Positions 3,248 to 42,487 of a DNA stretch of 51,662 bases are shown piece by piece. The notes under the pieces are model-generated. The model was not told where the DNA came from, did no database searches, and saw only the letters and a list, made by a program, of their open reading frames with translations. The translations under genes were made by a program, and so were the position numbers. Source of the stretch: Escherichia phage aaroes. The stretch's first letter is position 1, and every line of letters starts with the position of its first letter. The DNA is taken from the sequence record NC_049826.1; one strand, given 5' to 3'.

Positions 3248-3436
3248 AATACGCTTTACAGTAACCAACAAAACTCCGTCCTCATCACACAAATTATGCT
3301 CTGATATATCAAACGCTCGCATGTCAGAATGAATGAGCGTTAACATTGCGTGCATGAAGTCGTCATGTGAGATTGAACTTACGGCGCAGAACTTCAATAT
3401 TTTGTCTATTAGCATTTGACGTAAACAATTCTTCAT
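3242..3436 (-). CDS. hypothetical protein (64 aa)
   Basis: GGAGA RBS before ATG at 3436; overlaps the 3' end of the upstream ORF by 74 nt in another frame; stop TAG is inside the repeat core. Confidence 0.4.
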   Translation of the reverse strand: MKNCLRQMLIDKILKFCAVSSISHDDFMHAMLTLIHSDMRAFDISEHNLCDEDGVLLVTVKRIE

Positions 3437-3755
3437 CGCTCATTTCTCCGATCCGTAAAACATCCCTTACCCATTCGTTTTGCATACCTTCCAGGCTGTA
3501 AAGTTCAAACGAGAAAGGGCGATTTGCTGATCCTTTCTTACACCAGAACTTTCCACCAACTCCATCAAGATAACCAGCGGTCATCATTCTTGCGCAAAAT
3601 TCTTTTGAAACGGCAGTTGCAAACATCCTCGGCGTAAATCCTGCGGCCCTTGCGAGCCGCTCACATTCTCTGTGCTGAAAGATAAATTTTGCTATATGTT
3701 GACGTGTAAACCATTCGAATGACTCACACCAGCGATACAGATCCAGAAGAAACAT
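3363..3755 (-). CDS. hypothetical protein (130 aa)
   Basis: ATG 2 nt after the stop of the P-loop gene (translational coupling). Confidence 0.5.
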   Translation of the reverse strand: MFLLDLYRWCESFEWFTRQHIAKFIFQHRECERLARAAGFTPRMFATAVSKEFCARMMTAGYLDGVGGKFWCKKGSANRPFSFELYSLEGMQNEWVRDVLRIGEMSDEELFTSNANRQNIEVLRRKFNLT

Positions 3756-3757
3756 AA

Positions 3758-5341
3758 TTACCCTAGCAATGTTGGATTTACGAAAACAACGCCATTAATC
3801 ACACAAATATAATTTCTTTCCTCAAGCATCGGAAGCAGTTGCGTTTCCATGCGCTTCATTACTCCAGCCTGACCAACAAAAGGCTTAACTTTTCGTGCAG
3901 CCTCATATATGGCGCGCACATTCAAGATTCCCTTATTAGCCTTTCCGTGTCGAGTGATGATCTCGATTAGTTTACCCATTTCAGCATCATCACCAGCATA
4001 GCCAGAAGCGTTTGCGGCGCTAATGTATGTTTTGCTCAACTCGCTAAACATCAGCAATGCTTCCTGAACGGTTTCAACCTCAATCTCTTTCGACTTCTGA
4101 GGGTATCCACCAGGATTAAACCAATTGCGGATAGTGTGCAAAACCGAAGCAATCCTGATCACCTGCTTATCCATTTTGCCAAGCGCACCTCGCAGCATTG
4201 TATGCGAATACTTTCCGCCATCAGCAAGGTGCGGTTCCATCTCCTGACGAGCCATGTTAAGCACTCGCATTGCGGATTTGCTGATCTTAAGCTGGATGTT
4301 TGATTCGCTCATGATGTTATGGATCAGCTTAAAATATTGGCTTTTCAGTTCTCCATCAACAGGCTCATAAGTCGAATCACCGTTATCATCAACAAATTTT
4401 CGACGACCTAAAAATGATTCTTCACGCACAAGCAAATAACGCTCACTCACACCGATACCGCGCGATCCTGCATCCATGATGGCATTAATTGTTTCATCCT
4501 GGGCAATTACTGCCATGCAGCCAAGAGCTTTAAAACTCATGTTATTGTCTGCGTTTGCGCGAGCTATAGAAACATGACCGTGATCCCATGCTTTTAGCAC
4601 AAGTTCGCTGTTTGTTTTGCGTTCGCTATTGGCATATGTCAGACCTAAAAGGCTGTTAATACTCGTTGCCTCGTCTGAAATTACAGCAAAGTTACCCTGG
4701 CGATTGTTGATTCTTGCAAGTCCTTCCGGCGTGGTATCGGACACAGGGAAAACAATGTCACACATCTTTTCAAGTTTTTCTTCAAGATCTTCTTTCTCTT
4801 GGTATAGCGATTCCATATCAGCGCCAGATCGCTCGCTTTTCATCTCTTTTGCAAGACCTGCCAACTTTGCCTGAATCTTTTTTCGTTCCTTCTTTCGCTG
4901 ATCATTAATTCTTTCTACTTCAGCAACCATAGGAGCAAGTGCCAGGCTGTTAACGGCAGATTTACCAGTTGAAGGAGGCTGGCTTGTGACAACATAAAGA
5001 GCTGTCGGCTGATCCGTTCCGTGATACTCAACCGTGAAGCGTCCAAGCATTGCAGCAGACACGCATCCGATAAAATGCATATAGGCCGATGATTCAGGGA
5101 ATTGAACAGAGCGAGCAATGTTGCGCGCCAACTTACCAACAACATCAACATCATTGCCAAGAGAAATTACAGGGTAGCGATCGTTTCCGTTATTAACATC
5201 ATTAACCTCACCCCAAAAGCTGGACGATTGACGGTATCCGTTAGCCTGAATGGATACGCGCACCGGAGACAATCCTTGCGCATCAGCTAATTCGATAATT
5301 TGTTTTGGTGTTAGTTTATTGGTTTCAAACGAAAAATTCAT
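3758..5341 (-). CDS. P-loop NTPase of unknown function (527 aa)
   Basis: AAGGAG RBS before ATG 5341; Walker A-like QPPSTGKS and Walker B-like AVISDEAT; charged coiled-coil segment after the P-loop. Confidence 0.55.
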   Translation of the reverse strand: MNFSFETNKLTPKQIIELADAQGLSPVRVSIQANGYRQSSSFWGEVNDVNNGNDRYPVISLGNDVDVVGKLARNIARSVQFPESSAYMHFIGCVSAAMLGRFTVEYHGTDQPTALYVVTSQPPSTGKSAVNSLALAPMVAEVERINDQRKKERKKIQAKLAGLAKEMKSERSGADMESLYQEKEDLEEKLEKMCDIVFPVSDTTPEGLARINNRQGNFAVISDEATSINSLLGLTYANSERKTNSELVLKAWDHGHVSIARANADNNMSFKALGCMAVIAQDETINAIMDAGSRGIGVSERYLLVREESFLGRRKFVDDNGDSTYEPVDGELKSQYFKLIHNIMSESNIQLKISKSAMRVLNMARQEMEPHLADGGKYSHTMLRGALGKMDKQVIRIASVLHTIRNWFNPGGYPQKSKEIEVETVQEALLMFSELSKTYISAANASGYAGDDAEMGKLIEIITRHGKANKGILNVRAIYEAARKVKPFVGQAGVMKRMETQLLPMLEERNYICVINGVVFVNPTLLG

Positions 5342-5414
5342 TGGTGATAACTCCTTTTTGATGCGGCAATAATACCGCACCAATGCTACCCGCATTTAAC
5401 AAAAAATACTATTT
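5342..5414 (-). promoter_or_regulatory. early promoter-leader cassette copy (variant core AATAGTATTTTTTGTTAA)
   Basis: Core followed by inverted repeat ATGCGG...CCGCAT containing TATTAT, then AAGGAG RBS. Confidence 0.5.
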
Positions 5415-9514: not shown

Positions 9515-9703
9515 TCAACTGGCGATTATTCCACCTATTCCATTAATCAGGAATAACAGGAATAACTCATTCGAGATCACCTGGATTGTGAGATCTTGAG
9601 TTTGATCAATTTTAATCAGGTGATTAACTTTTTGTGTGGAGGGGATAGAGAAACGCGATCCTCTCGCATCCTTTCCGGCAATCCTGGCGCGCAACATGTT
9701 CAT
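9515..9703 (-). CDS. hypothetical protein (62 aa), possible first gene of the leftward early block
   Basis: ATG after GGATGG; sequence is repeat-rich; stop precedes the cassette core. Confidence 0.3.
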   Translation of the reverse strand: MNMLRARIAGKDARGSRFSIPSTQKVNHLIKIDQTQDLTIQVISNELFLLFLINGIGGIIAS

Positions 9704-9719
9704 TATGTTTCCATCCGTT

Positions 9720-10060
9720 CACGCAAATGAGCCTCCGCAGTTCTTCCACGTTTCATGCTGTCATGCACACAAAAGAAACAATGTAAAATCTATATAAATA
9801 CACATTAAATCAATAAGTTATTTATATATGTATTTATATTTGTTTCTTATTGTTCTTGTTGTGTGATGGTTATTGGTATATGTTGCGATTTTTGTGTTGG
9901 TGGATATTGATTGTTTATTGTTCGATTTGGTTGATGATTATGGTTGCTCATGGTTGCGTATGATTCTTGATGTATTTATGTATATATCCGCGAAAATTCG
10001 TGAACAGCCACACAGCCAAAAAACATGGTGAGGATTCTTTTTAAATCATGCACTTAACTG
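9720..10060. other. AT-rich, GT-iteron-rich non-coding control region at the strand switch
   Basis: About 340 bp without a credible ORF; repeated TGATT/TGGTT/TGTGTG units; shares ATAAATCAATAAGTTA and TGTT(C)TTATTGTT with 39480-39800. Confidence 0.5.
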
Positions 10061-10111
10061 TGAATTTTGTTTCCGCGCAATCTCCACACGTATAGCAAAC
10101 AATTAGAACGC

Positions 10112-10140
10112 TTGACATCGACACGGCGCGGTGGCAACAT
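10112..10140 (+). promoter_or_regulatory. candidate sigma70-type promoter for the rightward early block
   Basis: TTGACA, 17-nt spacer, CAACAT, about 40 nt upstream of the first plus-strand ORF. Confidence 0.35.
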
Positions 10141-10179
10141 TGCAACCACCAACAAACAGAGCAAATAGGAGTTACTCTT

Positions 10180-10641: not shown

Positions 10642-10904
10642 TGGCTATGATGAAAATTCGCAAAGCAACAGATGATTTCATCCGCAGTAATGCGGAAAGC
10701 GGTCGCCTGTACGTTGCATTCGTGGAGCGCAAGAGAAAGCGCGGAAAGATTGTTGCGACTGAGCGGTTATTCAAGATGAAGCCGAGAACTGAATGCGAAT
10801 GCAAAAAGGATTGCGGTTTTTACTTCGGATGCCGTTGCAGCACGATAGAAAACGCGCGAACGCTCATAGATGAAGGAAAAGTATACTTCAATCCGGCAGA
10901 ATAG
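10641..10904 (+). CDS. hypothetical protein with C-terminal Cys cluster (87 aa)
   Basis: GGAGGA RBS; ECECKKDCGFYFGCRCS zinc-ribbon-like end; stop TAG inside the repeat core. Confidence 0.5.
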   Translation: MAMMKIRKATDDFIRSNAESGRLYVAFVERKRKRGKIVATERLFKMKPRTECECKKDCGFYFGCRCSTIENARTLIDEGKVYFNPAE

Positions 10905-10976
10905 CACTTTTTGTTAAAACGCCAGGTGCGAATCCTGGCATAATAGCCTCATCGAAACGAGATTGAGGAAAACAAA
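10901..10976 (+). promoter_or_regulatory. early promoter-leader cassette copy (canonical)
   Basis: ATAGCACTTTTTGTTAAAAC, hairpin GCCAGG-tgcgaat-CCTGGC, CATAAT, leader ATCGAAACGAG, GAGGAAAACAAA, ATG. Confidence 0.6.
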
Positions 10977-16081: not shown

Positions 16082-16369
16082 ATGGCTAAAAGCTATCATA
16101 AAATGTTGATTAACGCATTCGAAAAGGCAGCGCTTGAGCGTGGTTGGAATGACTCATTTCACACAGCAAACTGCATCAGACGTTACGGATTCAAGAATTG
16201 CCGCTCATGGGCGCGTGAAATGGCTTCATGGTATGATTTCGATGCGCATTACCTTGATATGGATTGCGCGCTGGTTGAAATGATTGAGCAGGCAGCGCTA
16301 GAGGATCGACCATTGACGCAATCTGATTTTGATGATTTTGTTCGCGATGAAATCTATTACATGAGCTAA
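16082..16369 (+). CDS. hypothetical protein (95 aa)
   Basis: AGGAGGAAACAAATG RBS; stop TAA-TAG runs into the repeat core. Confidence 0.5.
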   Translation: MAKSYHKMLINAFEKAALERGWNDSFHTANCIRRYGFKNCRSWAREMASWYDFDAHYLDMDCALVEMIEQAALEDRPLTQSDFDDFVRDEIYYMS

Positions 16370-16444
16370 TAGCACTTTTTGTTAAAACTTCCGCGAGGGC
16401 ATTTGTTAAAGTGTCCTCATTGAAGCGAAACAGAGGAAAGCACA
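16368..16444 (+). promoter_or_regulatory. early promoter-leader cassette copy
   Basis: AATAGCACTTTTTGTTAAAAC, inverted repeat GAGGGCA...TGTCCTC, leader ATTGAAGCGAAACAGAGGAAAG. Confidence 0.5.
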
Positions 16445-37500: not shown

Positions 37501-38121
37501 ATCGAAGATTTAAACGGAGTTATTAAGACTGAGGTTGAGGCTAACATCTCTGAAGTGAAACAGGCTATCGCTAACGAGACAGAAGCAAGGGTGCAGGCTG
37601 ACCAGGCGTTAACAGCTAAGTTCGGCGATGTTGAATCGGCATTAGCTCAAAAACTTGATTCATGGGCTAGTGTGTCGTCTGTTGGAGCTAAATACTCAAT
37701 GAAATTGGGGTTAACATACAACGGTCAACAGTACAGCGCAGGAATGGTAATGCAGCTTTCGCAGAGTTCATCCGGCCTTATCTCGCAGATTTTGTTTGAT
37801 GCGAACAGGTTCGCCATCATGACAAGTTCGACTGGCGGGGTGTATAAGCTACCTTTCGTGGTGGAAAATAACCAGGTATTCATTAACAGCCTGTTAGTGA
37901 AAAATGGTTCAATCACCAATGCGATGATCGGTAATTATATTCAGTCGAATAACTTTGTTGCTAATCAGCAGGGGTGGAGGCTGAATAAAAACGGCAGATT
38001 TGAGAACTACGGTTCTACATCTGGAGAAGGGGCCATGAAGTTGACCAACGAAACAATAAGTGTACGAGACGCAAACAGGCGCTTGCGTGTTCAGATTGGT
38101 AGGCTTACTGGTACATGGTAA
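34543..38121 (+). CDS. central tail fibre / host specificity protein (lambda gpJ-like)
   Basis: 1192 aa at the end of the M-L-K-I module; contains about four tandem ~40-aa coiled-coil repeats. Confidence 0.8.
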   Translation: MAENMITGSKGGSSKPYVPKEMEDNLISINKIKILLAVSDGECDPDFTLRDLYLDDVPVIADDGTVNYQGVSAEFRPGTQTQDYIQGFTDTSREVTLARDITTSNPYVISVTNKTLSAIRIKMLMPTGIKQEDNGDLVGVKVTYAVDMAVDGDSYKEVLRDTIEGKTRSGYDRSRRIDLPAFNDRVLLRVRRITADSASSRVTDLIKLQSYAEVIDAKFRYPLTGLVYVEFDSELFPNQIPNISIKKKWKLINVPSNYDPVSREYRGSWDGTFKKAWSNNPAWVLYDIITNQRYGLDQRELGVQVDKWSLYEAAQYCDQKVPDGKGGTEPRYLCDVVIQSQIEAYQLIRDICSIFRGMSFWNGESLSIVIDKPRDPSYIFTNDNVVDGDFQYTTASEKSMYTQCNVTFDDEQNMYQQDVEGVFDTEAALRFGYNPTSITAIGCTRRSEANRRGRWILKTNLRSTTVNFATGLEGMIPSIGDVIAIADNFHSSNLKLNLSGRVMEVSGLQVFVPFKIDARPGDFIIINKPDGKPVKRTISKVSGDGKTIELNIGFGFEVKPDTVFAIDRTDIALQQYVVTSIGKGDDDDEFTYSITAVEYDPNKYDEIDYGVNIDDRPTSIVQPDTMAAPENVQISSYSRIVQGASVETMVVSWDKVPYASLYEMQWRKGDGNWLNTPQTANKEIEVEGIYSGNYQVRVRSVSASGSTSPWSRIVTASLTGKVGEPGAPVNLTASDNEVFGIRVKWGMPEGSGDTAYIELHQSPDGTAENSSLLTLIPYPQYEYWHGTLPAGHVVWYRIRSVDRIGNVSGWTDFVRGMASDDVEAVLGDILDKIFDTEAGQDLKENAIDSANKIKDQAQAIIQNALANDADIKWTRVQNGKRKAEYGHALELIATETEARVTQIEELRASIDEDIVSSIKTVQEAIATESETRATQINALDSKFTTEIDGVKRDTAASINQVNQTIANESEARAQAVNALDAKFTKEIEDLNGVIKTEVEANISEVKQAIANETEARVQADQALTAKFGDVESALAQKLDSWASVSSVGAKYSMKLGLTYNGQQYSAGMVMQLSQSSSGLISQILFDANRFAIMTSSTGGVYKLPFVVENNQVFINSLLVKNGSITNAMIGNYIQSNNFVANQQGWRLNKNGRFENYGSTSGEGAMKLTNETISVRDANRRLRVQIGRLTGTW

Positions 38122-38164
38122 AATCAAAGCGGGGCGATTGCCCCGCATTTATGGAGGTTTAATA

Positions 38165-38470
38165 ATGGCTGAATATGGTGTTTCAACGTGGGATGCTAAC
38201 GGGAAGTATAACAACTACGGAATCAAGCCAGTTTCCGTTGTTGGTGTCATCAGCCTTGCCGCTGGTCAGACAAGCGGATCGTGGAGCTTTAGCATTCCAA
38301 GTGGTTTTAAGGTTGGGTATGTTGTTTCACTTGATGAAGGTGCTAGAGGAGTTGGAAGGGAAATAGTAGCATCTGGAAATACAATAAGAATTAGTCCTAC
38401 ATCGTCAATCGGTGCAAATAGGTATTCTTCTTCAAAGTGCGAGTTAGTTGTTTTTCTTGAGAGGGTTTAA
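38165..38470 (+). CDS. hypothetical tail-associated protein, MAEYG paralog 1 (101 aa)
   Basis: GGAGG RBS; shares N-terminus MAEYG...WDANGK with the next ORF. Confidence 0.45.
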   Translation: MAEYGVSTWDANGKYNNYGIKPVSVVGVISLAAGQTSGSWSFSIPSGFKVGYVVSLDEGARGVGREIVASGNTIRISPTSSIGANRYSSSKCELVVFLERV

Positions 38471-38472
38471 AA

Positions 38473-39111
38473 ATGGCTGAGTATGGAGCAATGTTATCAT
38501 TATCAAATGGGAATCCATTTGTTACACCAAAATCAACGCCATTTTGCTTATATGGCAAGTACACTTATTCATCTTCAGGTACTTCTGCCTATCATAGCGC
38601 AAGCGCAAATATACCAGTAAATCAATCTTATCCATGCATGGCATTTATAAAAACAACAAACACACAGCAGCCAACTGCATTAATAGCTTACAGGAACGGT
38701 GGTAACATTTATGTAAACGGAGGAAATCCATACGGGCAATCATTTACAATGACTGTTTATATATTCGCTATATTCCCTCAAACTCTACCAAAATATGGTA
38801 TGGCTATATGGGATGCAAGCGGCAAGTTGGTTTTAACTAATGAAAGCAGGGTGCTAACAGACCTTGTGACAATTGGTACTCCTGGTTCTTCAGGGGGAAC
38901 GAATATAGATCAGACATTATCTGGTTCTTATGCTGTTTGCCCATCAAGGCTTGGTGCGGTTATAGGCATGGGTGCGTCTGACATATATACATCATGCAGG
39001 TATAATGGTTCAGTCACAAGGATAGGTGCAGCAAGGACAACTCCAGGGACGGGTTCTATAACAAATAACGGAAATTCAATAATTGCAATAAAGACTGATA
39101 TTTACGACTAA
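38473..39111 (+). CDS. hypothetical tail-associated protein, MAEYG paralog 2 (212 aa), possible receptor-binding accessory
   Basis: N-terminus MAEYG and a later IWDASGK block; Ser/Thr/Gly/Asn-rich. Confidence 0.45.
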   Translation: MAEYGAMLSLSNGNPFVTPKSTPFCLYGKYTYSSSGTSAYHSASANIPVNQSYPCMAFIKTTNTQQPTALIAYRNGGNIYVNGGNPYGQSFTMTVYIFAIFPQTLPKYGMAIWDASGKLVLTNESRVLTDLVTIGTPGSSGGTNIDQTLSGSYAVCPSRLGAVIGMGASDIYTSCRYNGSVTRIGAARTTPGTGSITNNGNSIIAIKTDIYD

Positions 39112-39113
39112 TG

Positions 39114-39142
39114 AAAAAGGGGCTTTCGCCCCTTTGTTTTTA
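39114..39142. terminator. bidirectional intrinsic terminator between convergent genes
   Basis: AAAAA-GGGGC-tttc-GCCCC-TTTgTTTTT. Confidence 0.8.
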
Positions 39143-39143
39143 T

Positions 39144-39371
39144 TTAAAGACTGCAATCAGCGTTTTTAAAGTTGTCAATGCTTACCCACTGAAAATTAAA
39201 CGGATAGCCAGCCTTAACAAGAGTGCGTTCGCCAACTCGTTTTACTCCAAAAATAGCAACTGAATACTGCATACCGCTATTTTCATAAATAGCCGTGCAT
39301 TCACGTTTAGGCATATTTGCGCAACCAGTCAGGGTTACGGCTGCAATCAAAACGGCGATTAACTTTTTCAT
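39144..39371 (-). CDS. cor: small outer-membrane lipoprotein, Cor-like superinfection-exclusion candidate
   Basis: 75 aa, signal peptide with lipobox LTGC; AAGGAG RBS; size, lipobox and location resemble Cor of T1/phi80/N15. Confidence 0.5.
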   Translation of the reverse strand: MKKLIAVLIAAVTLTGCANMPKRECTAIYENSGMQYSVAIFGVKRVGERTLVKAGYPFNFQWVSIDNFKNADCSL

Positions 39372-39447
39372 GTTGGTGTCTCCTTCGTTGTTGTTGGTTG
39401 CAACTATACACGATCTTACAGCAGGCGTTTAGCAAAAAGTGCTATTC
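39372..39447 (-). promoter_or_regulatory. early-type promoter cassette for the lipoprotein gene (core variant GAATAGCACTTTTTGCTAAA)
   Basis: Core, TATAGT, leader CGAAGGAGACACC before ATG; here the TAG in the core is not a stop of any upstream gene. Confidence 0.45.
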
Positions 39448-39479
39448 TGTTCTTTTTGTTCTCCTGCGTTCTCAAATCT

Positions 39480-39800
39480 GCGGAGGCGTAAATTTAGAGT
39501 AAAAAGTGAGCAATAACAGAGCGCGATATATACAGATAAATATATATACATACATATAAATCAATAAGTTAGTAGTATATATATTAATGTTTGTTCTTTA
39601 TTGTTATCTGTGTTTTGTGTGATTTTGTGTGTCTGGTGATTTTTCTGTGATTATGCATGTGTCAGTGGTTATGTGTGTCTATATATCTATATCCGTCGCA
39701 AATTGAGGAACAAGAGAACAAAAAGACAACAAAGATATTTATCAATCACTTACATGTAAGTTTTGTTATCCAAGTTGGCGAGAACGTTGTTAAAACAGAA
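39480..39800. other. second AT-rich, TGTG-iteron non-coding control region (homologous to 9720-10060)
   Basis: No ORF; shares ATAAATCAATAAGTTA (39556-39571) and TGTTCTTTATTGTT with the first region; repeated GTGTGATTTT / GTGATT units. Confidence 0.5.
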
Positions 39801-39815
39801 AAAACAAAATAACTA

Positions 39816-39843
39816 TTGACTAAACGCATCAAATAGCTACAAT
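39816..39843 (+). promoter_or_regulatory. sigma70-type promoter for the recombination module
   Basis: TTGACT, 16-nt spacer, TACAAT, about 30 nt upstream of ATG 39873. Confidence 0.5.
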
Positions 39844-39872
39844 GCAGACATACCAACCAATGAGGGCAAATC

Positions 39873-40934
39873 ATGAATAAGTTTATGGCGTACACCAGCG
39901 AAGAAATGAGTAATGAGCTTTATCACGATCCAGAAGCGTGGACGGCTGATTATGTTAGTGGATCAAGCCTGGCCGAGATTTACAGCACATGCCCGGCGGC
40001 GTGGAAGTTCAAGCCTCGTGACGATAAGAGCAAGGCGCTTGTTTTCGGTACGCAGTCGCATACCAACTTTGAGAGCAAGGAGCTTTTCGAAAAAACATAT
40101 CGCCGAGCGCCAGCGCCAGAAGACTTTAAGGATCTGATAACTAGCCAAACTGCGCTTGCCGCAAAACTGAAATCATTTGGCCTGAAAGGTACAACCGGAA
40201 AGACTTATCCAGACCTTATCAAAATGATGGTAGATTGCGGAGAAGACCTTAACGTCATGTGGTTAATCGACATGATCGCAGAAAGCCAGGCCAGGGCCGA
40301 CGGAGTGCAGTTAATCGACGCTAAAGACTACGACGCTTGCGTTGCAATGCGCCAGGTTCTGGAATCAATACCGGAACATAACGCATGTATGAATAGCAAG
40401 ACAGCACAACGTGAATTATCGTTGTTCGGTGAAATCAACGGCGTAAAAGTCAAAGTGCGATGCGATCACGTTGACGTAACAAAGAACGTAACAGCAACTT
40501 TGATTGATGGTTACGATGAAAAAGGTCAACCGATTTGCCGCGATATTATTTATCCAGAGGCGATTGTGATCACTGACTACAAAACAACAATGAGCGCTAA
40601 TCCGGTTGAGTTTATGCGCCTGGCTTACAATCACGGCTATTATCTTAAAATGGCGTTGCAATGTGATTTATTCAGGAAAGCGTATCCAGAAGAAAAGCGA
40701 CCTATAGTTGTGCGCCTGTTAGCGCAAGAGAAGAAAGAGCCTTATTTGCCGCTGGCTTTCCGCATGAATAGCGAGCAATTAAAGATCGGGCGCATTCAGT
40801 ACATGAGCGTGATTAACCAGTTTTCCATGTGCCAGCAGCATGACGTTTGGCCTTCGTATTCAAACGGTGAGCCGGAGGTTTGCCTTGATACTCCTGATTG
40901 GGTGCGCCGCCAGTTTAAGCAATATCTTATTTAA
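39873..40934 (+). CDS. PD-(D/E)XK exonuclease (RecB/Cas4/YqaJ-like)
   Basis: IVITDYKTT motif (D-x-K core) with upstream acidic residues; sits in the recombination module with Erf and SSB. Confidence 0.5.
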   Translation: MNKFMAYTSEEMSNELYHDPEAWTADYVSGSSLAEIYSTCPAAWKFKPRDDKSKALVFGTQSHTNFESKELFEKTYRRAPAPEDFKDLITSQTALAAKLKSFGLKGTTGKTYPDLIKMMVDCGEDLNVMWLIDMIAESQARADGVQLIDAKDYDACVAMRQVLESIPEHNACMNSKTAQRELSLFGEINGVKVKVRCDHVDVTKNVTATLIDGYDEKGQPICRDIIYPEAIVITDYKTTMSANPVEFMRLAYNHGYYLKMALQCDLFRKAYPEEKRPIVVRLLAQEKKEPYLPLAFRMNSEQLKIGRIQYMSVINQFSMCQQHDVWPSYSNGEPEVCLDTPDWVRRQFKQYLI

Positions 40935-41015: not shown

Positions 41016-41282
41016 ATGGAAAACAAACAAGTTTCAGAGGTAGCAGTTCACATCAATAATTTTGCCACCGGCATGGCTATGTTGCTTCGTGACTTTGTGG
41101 CGCCGCTTGACCCAACGGCAGGCGCAGAAGAAATGGAGTACATCAGAAAAGTAATGGATGCAGTCGATAACGTCGTACTCATTGCAACAATGAGCGAAGA
41201 CAACGAGGAAGCAATCAAGGCGGTAAAAGAAAGTTCTGATCGCATGATGGAAAATCTGATTAAATTACACACCAAAGAATAA
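41016..41282 (+). CDS. hypothetical acidic protein (88 aa)
   Basis: ORF between the exonuclease and Erf genes. Confidence 0.45.
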   Translation: MENKQVSEVAVHINNFATGMAMLLRDFVAPLDPTAGAEEMEYIRKVMDAVDNVVLIATMSEDNEEAIKAVKESSDRMMENLIKLHTKE

Positions 41283-41339: not shown

Positions 41340-41996
41340 ATGAAACTATCAGAGCAATTCGATAAGGTTTTACCAGCACTGCATAAGGCGCGTAGTTTGT
41401 TTGTAAAGGTGAAGAAGGATAAGCAAAACACTCACCTTAAAAACCGTTACGCAACACTTGATGCCGTACTTGATGCAATCACTCCGGCGCTAAACGATAA
41501 CGAATTAATGCTTATGCAGGATATGATTGAAAGCGATCAGCCAAATAGGATTAAAGTTGAAACGACAGTTCTTCATGTGTCCGGTCAGTACGTTAAATTC
41601 TATGCTGAGCTACCAATCGTTAAAAACGATCCTCAAGGTGTCGGATCTGCATTCACATACGCGCGTCGTTATGCAGCCGCAGCTGCATTTGGCTTAAGCC
41701 AGGCAGACGATGACGCACAGATTGCCGTTAAATCTGCAAACGACTGGAAGCGTGACATTGAGAAATGCGAAAGCGTAAACGAATTACAAGAAGTGCTCAA
41801 ATCAGCATGGAAGGCAAGCGATCCGGCAAGCAAGCAGGTAATTAAAGAGCATTACGAAAAGCGCAAGGCAGAACTTGAGATCGGAAAAGCACGAGGATTT
41901 AATCCAGCGCAACCAAAACAAAATCTTGCCGCTCAAGACGTTGACACAAAAAACGACGAGCAAGTAAAATCACAAAGCATAACTGACTTTGAATAA
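41340..41996 (+). CDS. erf: Erf-family single-strand annealing protein
   Basis: [16 protein letters not shown] and [21 protein letters not shown] blocks match the Erf pattern as I recall it from P22 Erf. Confidence 0.6.
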
Positions 41997-42040: not shown

Positions 42041-42487
42041 ATGCATATTATTACTGGTGAGATCCGAAAAGAGCCGCGAGTAAAGCAAATGCCTAACGGC
42101 AGCACACTTTATGTGGTTGAACTTTCAGAGCGATATAAAGATAAAGATGGAAACTGGCAATATACAAACTACAGTTTCTTTTTTAATGCCAAAACAGAAG
42201 GTCTTAATGGTTGGTATTCTGAGGCGTTCCAGGTTGGCAAGGTTATTTCTGTATCTTGCGACACGCTGCGCATTGAAACGCGCGAATATAACGGCAAGAC
42301 ATATTCAAGTTTGATGACTGGCGGATTTGCAAATCTTATATTCAGCCAGCGCGGAGAAGGTCAGCCGCAACAGCAACAACAAGGCGGATGGGGACAACCA
42401 CAGCAACATAATCAACCACAGCAACAGCAACAACCAAGACAAAGCAATCAGCCTCCTATGGACTTTGACGACGACATCCCTTTCTGA
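42041..42487 (+). CDS. ssb: single-stranded DNA-binding protein
   Basis: OB-fold-sized N-terminal domain, Gln/Gly-rich linker, C-terminal acidic tip DFDDDIPF identical to the E. coli SSB tip. Confidence 0.85.
   Translation: MHIITGEIRKEPRVKQMPNGSTLYVVELSERYKDKDGNWQYTNYSFFFNAKTEGLNGWYSEAFQVGKVISVSCDTLRIETREYNGKTYSSLMTGGFANLIFSQRGEGQPQQQQQGGWGQPQQHNQPQQQQQPRQSNQPPMDFDDDIPF

Follow-up and report, generated by a model that had tools for sequence, protein, structure and literature searches.

Two Paralogous Non-coding Modules of T1-like Phages as Candidate Replication Origins

A Module Upstream of the Exonuclease VIII Gene

The genome of Escherichia phage aaroes (NC_049826.1), a T1-like coliphage of the genus Hanrivervirus (Tempevirinae, Drexlerviridae), contains a gene-free gap of about 500 nt (39372-39872) between a leftward gene for a Cor-like superinfection-exclusion lipoprotein and the exonuclease VIII (exoVIII) gene, the first of a recombination module. 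In the following, the window designates the whole stretch of DNA that was analysed (51,662 nt). The gap houses a module extending from about 39446 to 39843 (about 400 nt), here named region B. A sister module, region A, is found elsewhere in the window, with its elements in the same order (Table 1). Judging from their sequences, regions A and B are paralogous non-coding modules of T1-like phages that most likely act in cis and bind protein, and it can tentatively be proposed that region B is a replication origin.

An earlier note on this DNA had described the region as the second copy of a control region having blocks in common with 9720-10060, and had placed it between the Cor-like lipoprotein gene and the recombination module. 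The first point is borne out by the blastn match given below and by the presence of both copies in phages T1 and TLS, the second by the identity of the left-hand gene product to T1 Cor and by the PHROG matches of the exoVIII, Erf and SSB genes. The limits then given (39480-39800) position the region correctly, but the module is somewhat bigger. The rightward promoter TTGACT-16-TACAAT stands exactly where it had been announced (39816-39843), and the leftward cassette-type promoter seen at 39372-39447 can now be recognized as a copy of a published 21-nt repeat of T1 and TLS, together with a TATAGT hexamer at 39403-39408 (-).

Region B contains short repeated units grouped in arms, a (TA)n-rich core, two predicted sites for integration host factor (IHF) as well as the exoVIII promoter. 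Forward units all lie left of 39620 and reverse units all lie right of 39700. The arms of regions A and B and those of TLS align mutually as modules of about 30 nt with TGTT/AACA cores. Two inverted pairs, formed by the left and promoter-proximal arms and by the central and right arms, are kept in 13 diverged sequences, and blastn detects an inverted-repeat match of region B with itself (39451-39726, E = 5e-7). IHF site 1 corresponds to the loop of a central hairpin. In relatives, the G+T-rich stretch varies in sequence and in length (indels of 2 and 29 nt) and its composition is kept. The order of the motifs also suggested an internal tandem duplication of region B; this idea was rejected, as no direct-repeat blast match supports it.

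Table 1. Features of regions A and B and of their surroundings in the window.
Feature	Position	Strand	Remarks
Region A (sister module)	9704-10179	.	Element order as in B: arms, TA core, G+T stretch, IHF-like site, rightward promoter
Region A, IHF site 1	9808-9820		Exact; identical to region B site 39559-39571
Region A, G+T-rich stretch	9837-9936	+	Most G+T-rich 100-mer of the window
Region A, IHF-like site 2	10044-10056		One mismatch
Region A, rightward promoter	TTGACA at 10112	+	
cor-like superinfection-exclusion lipoprotein gene	39144-39371	-	75 aa; 56% identity to T1 Cor (ST30); weak lipobox match
cor leftward promoter region	39403-39448	-	21-nt T1/TLS repeat 39428-39448 and TATAGT -10-like hexamer 39403-39408
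Left arm, three forward units CTGTTCTTTTTGTTCTCCTGCGTTCTC, GTTC spaced 9-10 bp	39446-39473	+	TTTTGTT invariant in 13 relatives; aligns with other arms of A, B and TLS; inverted partner: promoter-proximal arm
GGCGTAAAT box, copy 1	39485-39493	+	CG.AAAT columns conserved in relatives' alignment
(TA)n-rich core, candidate DNA-unwinding element	39526-39590	.	Lowest nearest-neighbour stability of the window, sizes 40-300
IHF core consensus 1, AATCAATAAGTTA (consensus WATCAANNNNTTR)	39559-39571	+	Exact; between short TATATA inverted arms
G+T-rich stretch, 80% G+T on + strand	39583-39682	+	Second most G+T-rich 100-mer of the window
Central arm, forward units TTTGTTCTTTATTGTTATCTGTGTTTTG	39590-39617	+	TTGTT invariant; inverted partner: right arm
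GTCGCAAAT box, copy 2	39695-39703	+	CG.AAAT columns conserved in relatives' alignment
Right arm, three reverse units GAGGAACAAGAGAACAAAAAGACAACAAAG	39705-39734	-	Two AACA blocks invariant; reverse complement aligns with left arm
IHF core consensus 2, TATCAATCACTTA	39740-39752	+	Exact; starts 76 nt upstream of the -35 hexamer
Promoter-proximal arm GAGAACGTTGTTAAAACAGAAAAAACAAAATA, reverse units, A-rich	39780-39811	-	Roughly -40 to -70 of the promoter
Sigma-70 promoter TTGACT-16-TACAAT, exoVIII-erf-ssb operon	39816-39843	+	10/12 consensus positions
Exonuclease VIII gene	39873-40934	+	PHROG matches; first gene of recombination module
Erf gene	41340-41996	+	PHROG matches; right of exoVIII
SSB gene	42041-42487	+	PHROG matches; right of Erf

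Two Sister Modules in One Genome

When the gap is compared with the whole window by blastn, the best non-self match aligns 39538-39672 with 9786-9918 (137 columns, 72% identity, E = 6.6e-17). A second shared block links 39676-39767 to 9971-10071 (66%, E = 1e-3), and the 15-mer TAAATCAATAAGTTA is identical in the two regions. According to nearest-neighbour energies, the core of region B (39526-39625) ranks lowest in duplex stability over the window and that of region A (9781-9880) second lowest, at all scanning sizes from 60 to 300 nt; at 100 nt, the stability of both cores lies about 5 standard deviations from the window mean. Moreover, the two most G+T-rich 100-mers on the + strand of these 51.6 kb are each located immediately to the right of one of the cores. 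Because the stability and G+T ranks single out both regions, the similarity between A and B is not merely a by-product of low complexity.

Comparison with the whole T1 and TLS genomes shows that each of them has both modules, and in TLS modules A and B match each other (E = 2.6e-12); a search with the DUF7174 gene that neighbours region A gave 4 distant loci. Regions A and B are true paralogues. It could be argued that two AT-rich intergenic regions resemble each other by chance, the more so as both are of low complexity, which inflates local similarity. However, the E value of the top non-self match, the same element order in A and B, the maintenance of both copies in T1 and TLS and the confinement of the motifs to the two regions make this explanation most improbable.

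In T1 and TLS, region A belongs to a divergent early region across which the deposited genomes begin and end. The sequence left of region A in the window resembles the deposited genome ends of T1, as judged by eye and not by alignment, and the TLS genome starts at a proposed pac sequence, AGATTT, at the place equivalent to the left of region A. From this resemblance and this position, region A, unlike region B, seems to adjoin the packaging start. A 62-aa open reading frame (ORF) at 9515-9703 (-), left of region A, matches no PHROG and probably does not represent a gene.

Conservation of the Module and Exchange of Its Left Flank

The gap has matches in 181 phage records, the top one being Escherichia phage grams (98.8%), and its close matches all belong to Hanrivervirus. 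This coliphage-type region is also carried by the 18 MG0656xx records named 'Campylobacter phage' (91-94% identity) and by OR786094, 'Streptococcus phage MBBL140' (67%). T1-like genomes recorded for such unrelated hosts give the impression of contamination or mislabelling.

Relatives were collected from IMG/VR by an exonuclease search, giving 45 loci that span Tempevirinae, TLS and T1. The module stands upstream of exoVIII in 45/45 of them, whatever the left neighbour. A TTGAC motif is present 56-76 nt before the exonuclease start in all but one of the 45 loci, and about 390-530 nt of non-coding DNA precede the exonuclease gene in all 14 loci that were given an ORF scan. In contrast, the left neighbour changes: it is cor here and in T1, three other leftward genes in haarsle and KarlJaspers and, in TLS, a rightward tail-fibre gene followed by a terminator, without leftward promoter. 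Since the exoVIII side is fixed and the left side exchangeable, the module belongs with the exonuclease promoter and not with cor; the cor-like gene is the left neighbour of region B and is outside the conserved module. Hence, the coupling of superinfection exclusion with recombination imagined in the earlier note finds no support. That note had also held that a deletion without phenotype and a lack of conservation in relatives would speak against its proposals; as to the latter, the module was found at every one of the 45 loci.

Conservation within the module is uneven. Within Hanrivervirus, mean pairwise identity amounts to 0.96 for the TA core with IHF site 1, 0.95 for the right arm and 0.96 for both IHF site 2 and the promoter, whereas third codon positions of the exonuclease gene, at 0.874, fall below these values. 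The TA core with IHF site 1 is the most conserved sub-element within the genus. Divergence close to the synonymous rate is seen in the G/T-rich stretch (0.888) and in the left and promoter-proximal arms.

As regards the left flank itself, two rightward genes and cor occupy the interval between the gene for tail-tip protein J and region B (38060-39371), and three leftward genes occupy it in haarsle and KarlJaspers (1329-2492). Mean identity is 0.56 over the cor span versus 0.92 in the adjacent module; an exchangeable cassette has region B as its right limit. Gene 38473-39111 (+) and cor (-) converge, and the G+C-rich hairpin found between them (39116-39135), bordered on each side by T runs, is likely a bidirectional terminator. 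On the other side of region B, between exoVIII and erf, an 88-aa gene (41016-41282, +) has as its sole match a PHROG named 'tail length tape measure protein' (phrog_11265). Such a name is implausible for a gene of this position and size, and it is probably a propagated mis-annotation.

Predicted IHF Sites and Lineage-Specific Units

The IHF consensus occurs 9 times in the window, and 3 of these occurrences are in regions A and B, which make up about 2% of the sequence. The predicted exact sites are two in region B and one in region A, where another site has one mismatch. Exact consensus sites are found in 32 of 46 B loci, for an expectation of 0.07 per locus. IHF site 1 is conserved in several lineages, and site 2 keeps the same position across Tempevirinae. 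In the T1 group, the other strand carries an exact IHF site at a matching distance from the promoter. Only its four N positions vary, as would be expected if selection maintains the site.

The repeated units differ from one lineage to another. They are of the TGTTC/GAACA type in Tempevirinae, correspond to the palindrome TGTWACA in T1 and are of a TGTAAT type in another lineage. In T1 (48.8 kb), 6/6 TGTWACA heptamers fall within the modules, four in region B (two on each side of the TA core) and two in region A (binomial probability 2.5e-10). Over 17 T1-group loci, the density of TGTWACA is 4.9/kb in region B versus 0.04/kb in the flanks (113-fold); over 26 Tempevirinae loci, that of TGTTC/GAACA is 13.4/kb versus 1.7/kb (8-fold). 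The TA-rich cores also stand out in three subfamilies, as regions A and B hold 10 of the 18 ATATATA heptamers here, 18 of 20 in T1 and 9 of 13 in TLS. Because lineage-specific units are common to both copies, whereas a host factor would be expected to keep one motif in all coliphages, we infer that the units point to a phage-encoded binding protein.

Promoters and the 21-nt Repeat

The -35 TTGAC and -10 TA.AAT of the exoVIII promoter are invariant in 13 diverged relatives, and the equivalent promoter of TLS is P51. Three sigma-70-type promoters are listed in TLS: the rightward promoter of region A (P01), that of region B (P51) and the promoter of an operon encoding a helix-turn-helix (HTH) protein and the primase. 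The equivalent of the third promoter in the window (48188-48161, -) has no such module.

T1 and TLS also carry a 21-nt direct repeat, aaATAGCACnnnTTGnTAAAA, oriented the way transcription runs and found about 76 nt before a start codon, the function of which is listed as an open question by the TLS authors (PMC11447400). The leftward copy before cor, AGAATAGCACTTTTTGCTAAA at 39428-39448 (-), has its 5' end 76 nt from the cor ATG, as is the case in TLS. About 20 copies are present in the window (e.g., 10900-10918, 16368-16386 and 50646-50664) and the repeat is highly conserved across Drexlerviridae. In the gap, it occupies only the left edge, and region B of TLS lacks it. The conserved module is a separate and apparently undescribed element. 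The open-access literature, which leaves out the 2004 T1 genome paper, yielded no account of the element, and none of an origin or of IHF dependence in T1-like phages.

The HTH protein of 157 aa (47636-48109, -), which is Cro/YdaS-like, is encoded just before the primase and behind the sigma-70-type promoter at 48161-48188 (-). It is highly conserved across Drexlerviridae, with an invariant basic N-terminal motif, DKRxxNGNNGxRRGxD, and is a candidate for the binder or activator of the 21-nt repeat. Next to it, the mechanical ORF of a RadD-like superfamily 2 (SF2) helicase starts at a TTG (48133), which is probably too early. The alternative ATG at about 48200 leaves a divergent gap of 90 nt with a leftward TTGAGT-17-TATAAT promoter and a rightward 21-nt repeat, as in TLS (P57).

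Searches for RNA, Coding and Host Origin Signals

The region was also considered as a possible gene for a small RNA or a small protein, such as that of the 51-aa ORF 39657-39812. ORFs of 30-61 aa are present in the gap, and in some relatives 'hypothetical proteins' have been annotated automatically under the region. However, Rfam gives no match in the region, either at the gathering score or at E<=1; folding of the single sequence, as RNA of both strands and as DNA, reveals no excess (z-scores of -0.38, +1.29 and +0.28); and RNAalifold on 13 relatives finds no conserved structure (consensus of -0.98 kcal/mol). In addition, the 2-nt and 29-nt indels of relatives fall within the ORF span and break the ORF, and no predicted promoter reads into it. 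A gene of this kind is thus very unlikely. A tRNA search of the region was likewise negative.

With at most one mismatch, there is no DnaA box in region B and one in region A. GATC sequences do not cluster: the whole B gap has one, outside the module, and region A has none. The lack of DnaA boxes and of a GATC cluster indicates that any origin here would not be of the DnaA-dependent oriC type. Nothing convincing was seen in the module for CRP and ArcA-type sites.

Replication Proteins of the Phage

The structure model of the DUF3987 protein (3758-5395, -), of high confidence (pLDDT 89), is that of an MCM-like AAA+ helicase carrying a C-terminal winged helix, and the top PDB fold matches of the model are all MCM2-7 subunits. 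A member of the DUF3987 family is a 5'-3' helicase of mobile elements (PMC11724360). From this model, T1-like phages appear to carry a replicative helicase of the MCM type. The primase of the window is homologous to the primase domain of the P4 alpha protein (alpha residues 22-262, E = 8e-13). The other replication and recombination proteins are the RadD-like SF2 helicase, SSB, exonuclease VIII and Erf. Since it encodes these proteins itself, the phage is expected to need a site where they can enter. Among possible partners, the DUF3987 helicase and a 130-aa protein (3363-3755) are conserved across lineages; PDB sequence searches made during the search for a binder of the units returned no matches.

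Comparison with Known Systems

In the P4 record, ori and crr are both annotated with type-1 repeats TGTTCACC, spaced by 10-11 bp and arranged in inverted groups. As with regions A and B, two separate cis regions of one genome share a short unit, and P4 ori is flanked by genes of divergent orientation. The sequence (T/C)GTTCAC, which resembles the P4 type-1 repeats, ends several arms in region A and in TLS; GTTCAC and GTGAAC occur once each in region A (9717 and 10000). The homology between the primases adds to the likeness. The differences are nevertheless marked. Region B has no exact TGTTCACC, its units being GTTCTC or GTTCCT, and T1 uses TGTWACA. No alpha-type helicase or C-terminal origin-binding domain is detectable, the helicase being a separate MCM-like DUF3987 protein. 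Conversely, a (TA)n core centred on an IHF site, as in region B, is missing from P4. Assignment of region B to the P4 ori/crr type was therefore rejected, given the absence of TGTTCACC and an alpha homology limited to the primase domain.

The gamma origin of R6K and the origin of pSC101 have an AT-rich, IHF-containing segment beside initiator repeats, a second IHF site on the opposite side and an adjacent promoter. Like these iteron origins, region B has an AT-rich segment suited to unwinding (39526-39625). Unlike them, it belongs to a virulent phage and not to a plasmid, its units are 5-7 bp cores in 30-nt arms and not iterons of 19-22 bp, and there is neither a Rep/pi-type initiator gene nor a set of DnaA boxes. 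In the Bacillus phage SPP1, a siphovirus of the pac type, oriL and oriR share an AT-rich region and boxes for the initiator G38P, and a recombination module (exonuclease, annealase and SSB) serves later replication. Regions A and B resemble oriL and oriR in being two copies with shared units and an AT-rich region, in a phage that also has a recombination module; the likeness concerns the general layout. Finally, the early operator region of phage Mu has an arrangement of repeats, IHF site and repeats between divergent promoters, and the pL promoter of lambda is stimulated by IHF bound upstream, at about -90 to -100. These two control regions occur once per genome and, unlike A and B, are not known to have an extreme (TA)n core or a strand-biased G/T stretch.

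A Proposed Mechanism and Competing Explanations

Taken together, the sequence data lead us to propose, with a probability of about 0.4, that region B is a phage-specific, IHF-assisted replication origin flanked by transcription, and one of two. Region A would then be the second origin or a helper site. The earlier note had also considered a second origin, which agrees with the anatomy of the module. In such a mechanism, a phage-encoded sequence-specific protein would bind the inverted unit arms (TGTTC/GAACA here, TGTWACA in T1). Host IHF would bend the DNA at two places, the exact consensus at the centre of the (TA)n core and the second site, about 70 nt ahead of the -35 hexamer. Flanking transcription, from the rightward sigma-70 promoter found in every relative examined and here also from the leftward cor promoter, would leave negative supercoils behind the polymerases. 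The combined action of the unit-binding protein, IHF and supercoiling could open the TA core, which is predicted to be the easiest place to melt in the genome. The MCM-like DUF3987 helicase and the P4-alpha-type primase would be loaded at the opened core, and the strand-biased G/T-rich flank may serve as a zone of single-strand loading or priming. An extension of this proposal to T1-type phages in general, with two paralogous IHF-bent (TA)n origins, inverted lineage-specific units, a G/T loading zone, a strong early promoter pointing away to the right, an MCM-like helicase and a P4-alpha-like primase, has to be put forward even more tentatively.

Several observations weigh against an origin. 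Apart from the extreme TA core and the G/T stretch, everything in the module is equally expected of a regulated early promoter region. GC skew, looked at as an origin marker, mirrors gene orientation only. The units are short and degenerate, and their density in the window alone is not exceptional genome-wide, so that support for them comes from relatives. Helical periodicity (10-11 bp) of AA/TT or GTT/AAC over the whole module is not significant, region B being at the 89th-97th percentile and region A at about the 50th; the 10-bp phasing is therefore only local, inside the arms. As for the binding protein, the search for it could not tie any protein of the window to the repeated units: the helicase and C-terminal origin-binding parts of P4 alpha have no sequence match among the window proteins, the C-terminal winged helix of the DUF3987 protein has generic fold matches only (best Foldseek E of 0.04), and the putative recognition helix of the HTH-157 protein does not co-vary with the type of unit, the protein being very conserved, T1 included. 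Moreover, in region A of T1, two of the six TGTWACA sites (469-475 and 494-500) lie over the -10 element and about +15 of the rightward promoter. This operator-like placement suggests that the unit-binding protein may also repress that promoter.

Alternatively, the modules may only control early promoters. The arms would be operators or enhancers for a phage regulator, and the IHF-induced bend would bring protein bound upstream, or AT-rich DNA, to RNA polymerase at the strong sigma-70 promoter, giving an immediate-early boost to exoVIII-erf-ssb and, at region A, to the rightward early genes, followed by shut-off, with no role in replication. This explanation is the main competitor of an origin, and a serious one, somewhat less probable. 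It agrees with the location of the modules directly upstream of two of the three sigma-70-type promoters of TLS (P01 and P51), with the distance between IHF site 2 and the promoter, which is free of indels across Tempevirinae and is the same for the IHF site of T1, and with the promoter-proximal arm, whose A-rich sequence at roughly -40 to -70 is UP-element-like; the TGTWACA sites overlapping the T1 region A promoter are also in its favor, as are the layouts of the Mu early operator region and of lambda pL. However, it leaves unexplained why a (TA)n core lying 250-300 bp upstream is the most conserved and least stable DNA, and why the G/T-rich stretch is kept in composition. Besides, the third sigma-70 promoter (48188-48161, -) does without a module, which is therefore no general requirement of early promoters. 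It should also be noted that an origin and promoter control are compatible, since origin-binding proteins often repress nearby promoters too.

The module may also be a cis-acting site of another kind. It could, for instance, mark a boundary of recombination or mosaic exchange, take part in packaging, or serve host nucleoid proteins as a decoy or binding platform. The left flank of region B is indeed a mosaic junction that joins different receptor-binding or exclusion cassettes to the same module, and region A adjoins the pac neighbourhood and the genome ends of T1 and TLS. In the pac site of phage P1, repeats flank an IHF site. Yet region B is 20-30 kb away from these genome ends and pac neighbourhood and, unlike P1 pac, has no GATC-containing unit. 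Furthermore, selected lineage-specific units and two conserved IHF sites are more elaborate than what a patch of homology needs. An alternative of this sort is unlikely.

Implications for T1-like Phages

The seven classic T phages include T1, whose relatives rank among the commonest coliphages, laboratory contaminants and candidates for therapy. In recent papers on T1-like genomes, the origin of replication was not found. The present analysis narrows the search for it to two defined modules of about 400 bp, in which the TA core, the two IHF sites, the arms of units and the promoter can be told apart. If these modules control promoters only, they would represent the immediate-early switch of the family and a dependency on a host factor, IHF. 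If they are origins, the T1 family would have its first assigned origin, of an architecture that is new for an MCM-like helicase of bacterial viruses. The modules would be the entry point of a poorly studied replisome, comprising the DUF3987 MCM-like helicase and the P4-type primase, and would be useful for the engineering of T1-like phages and phagemids.

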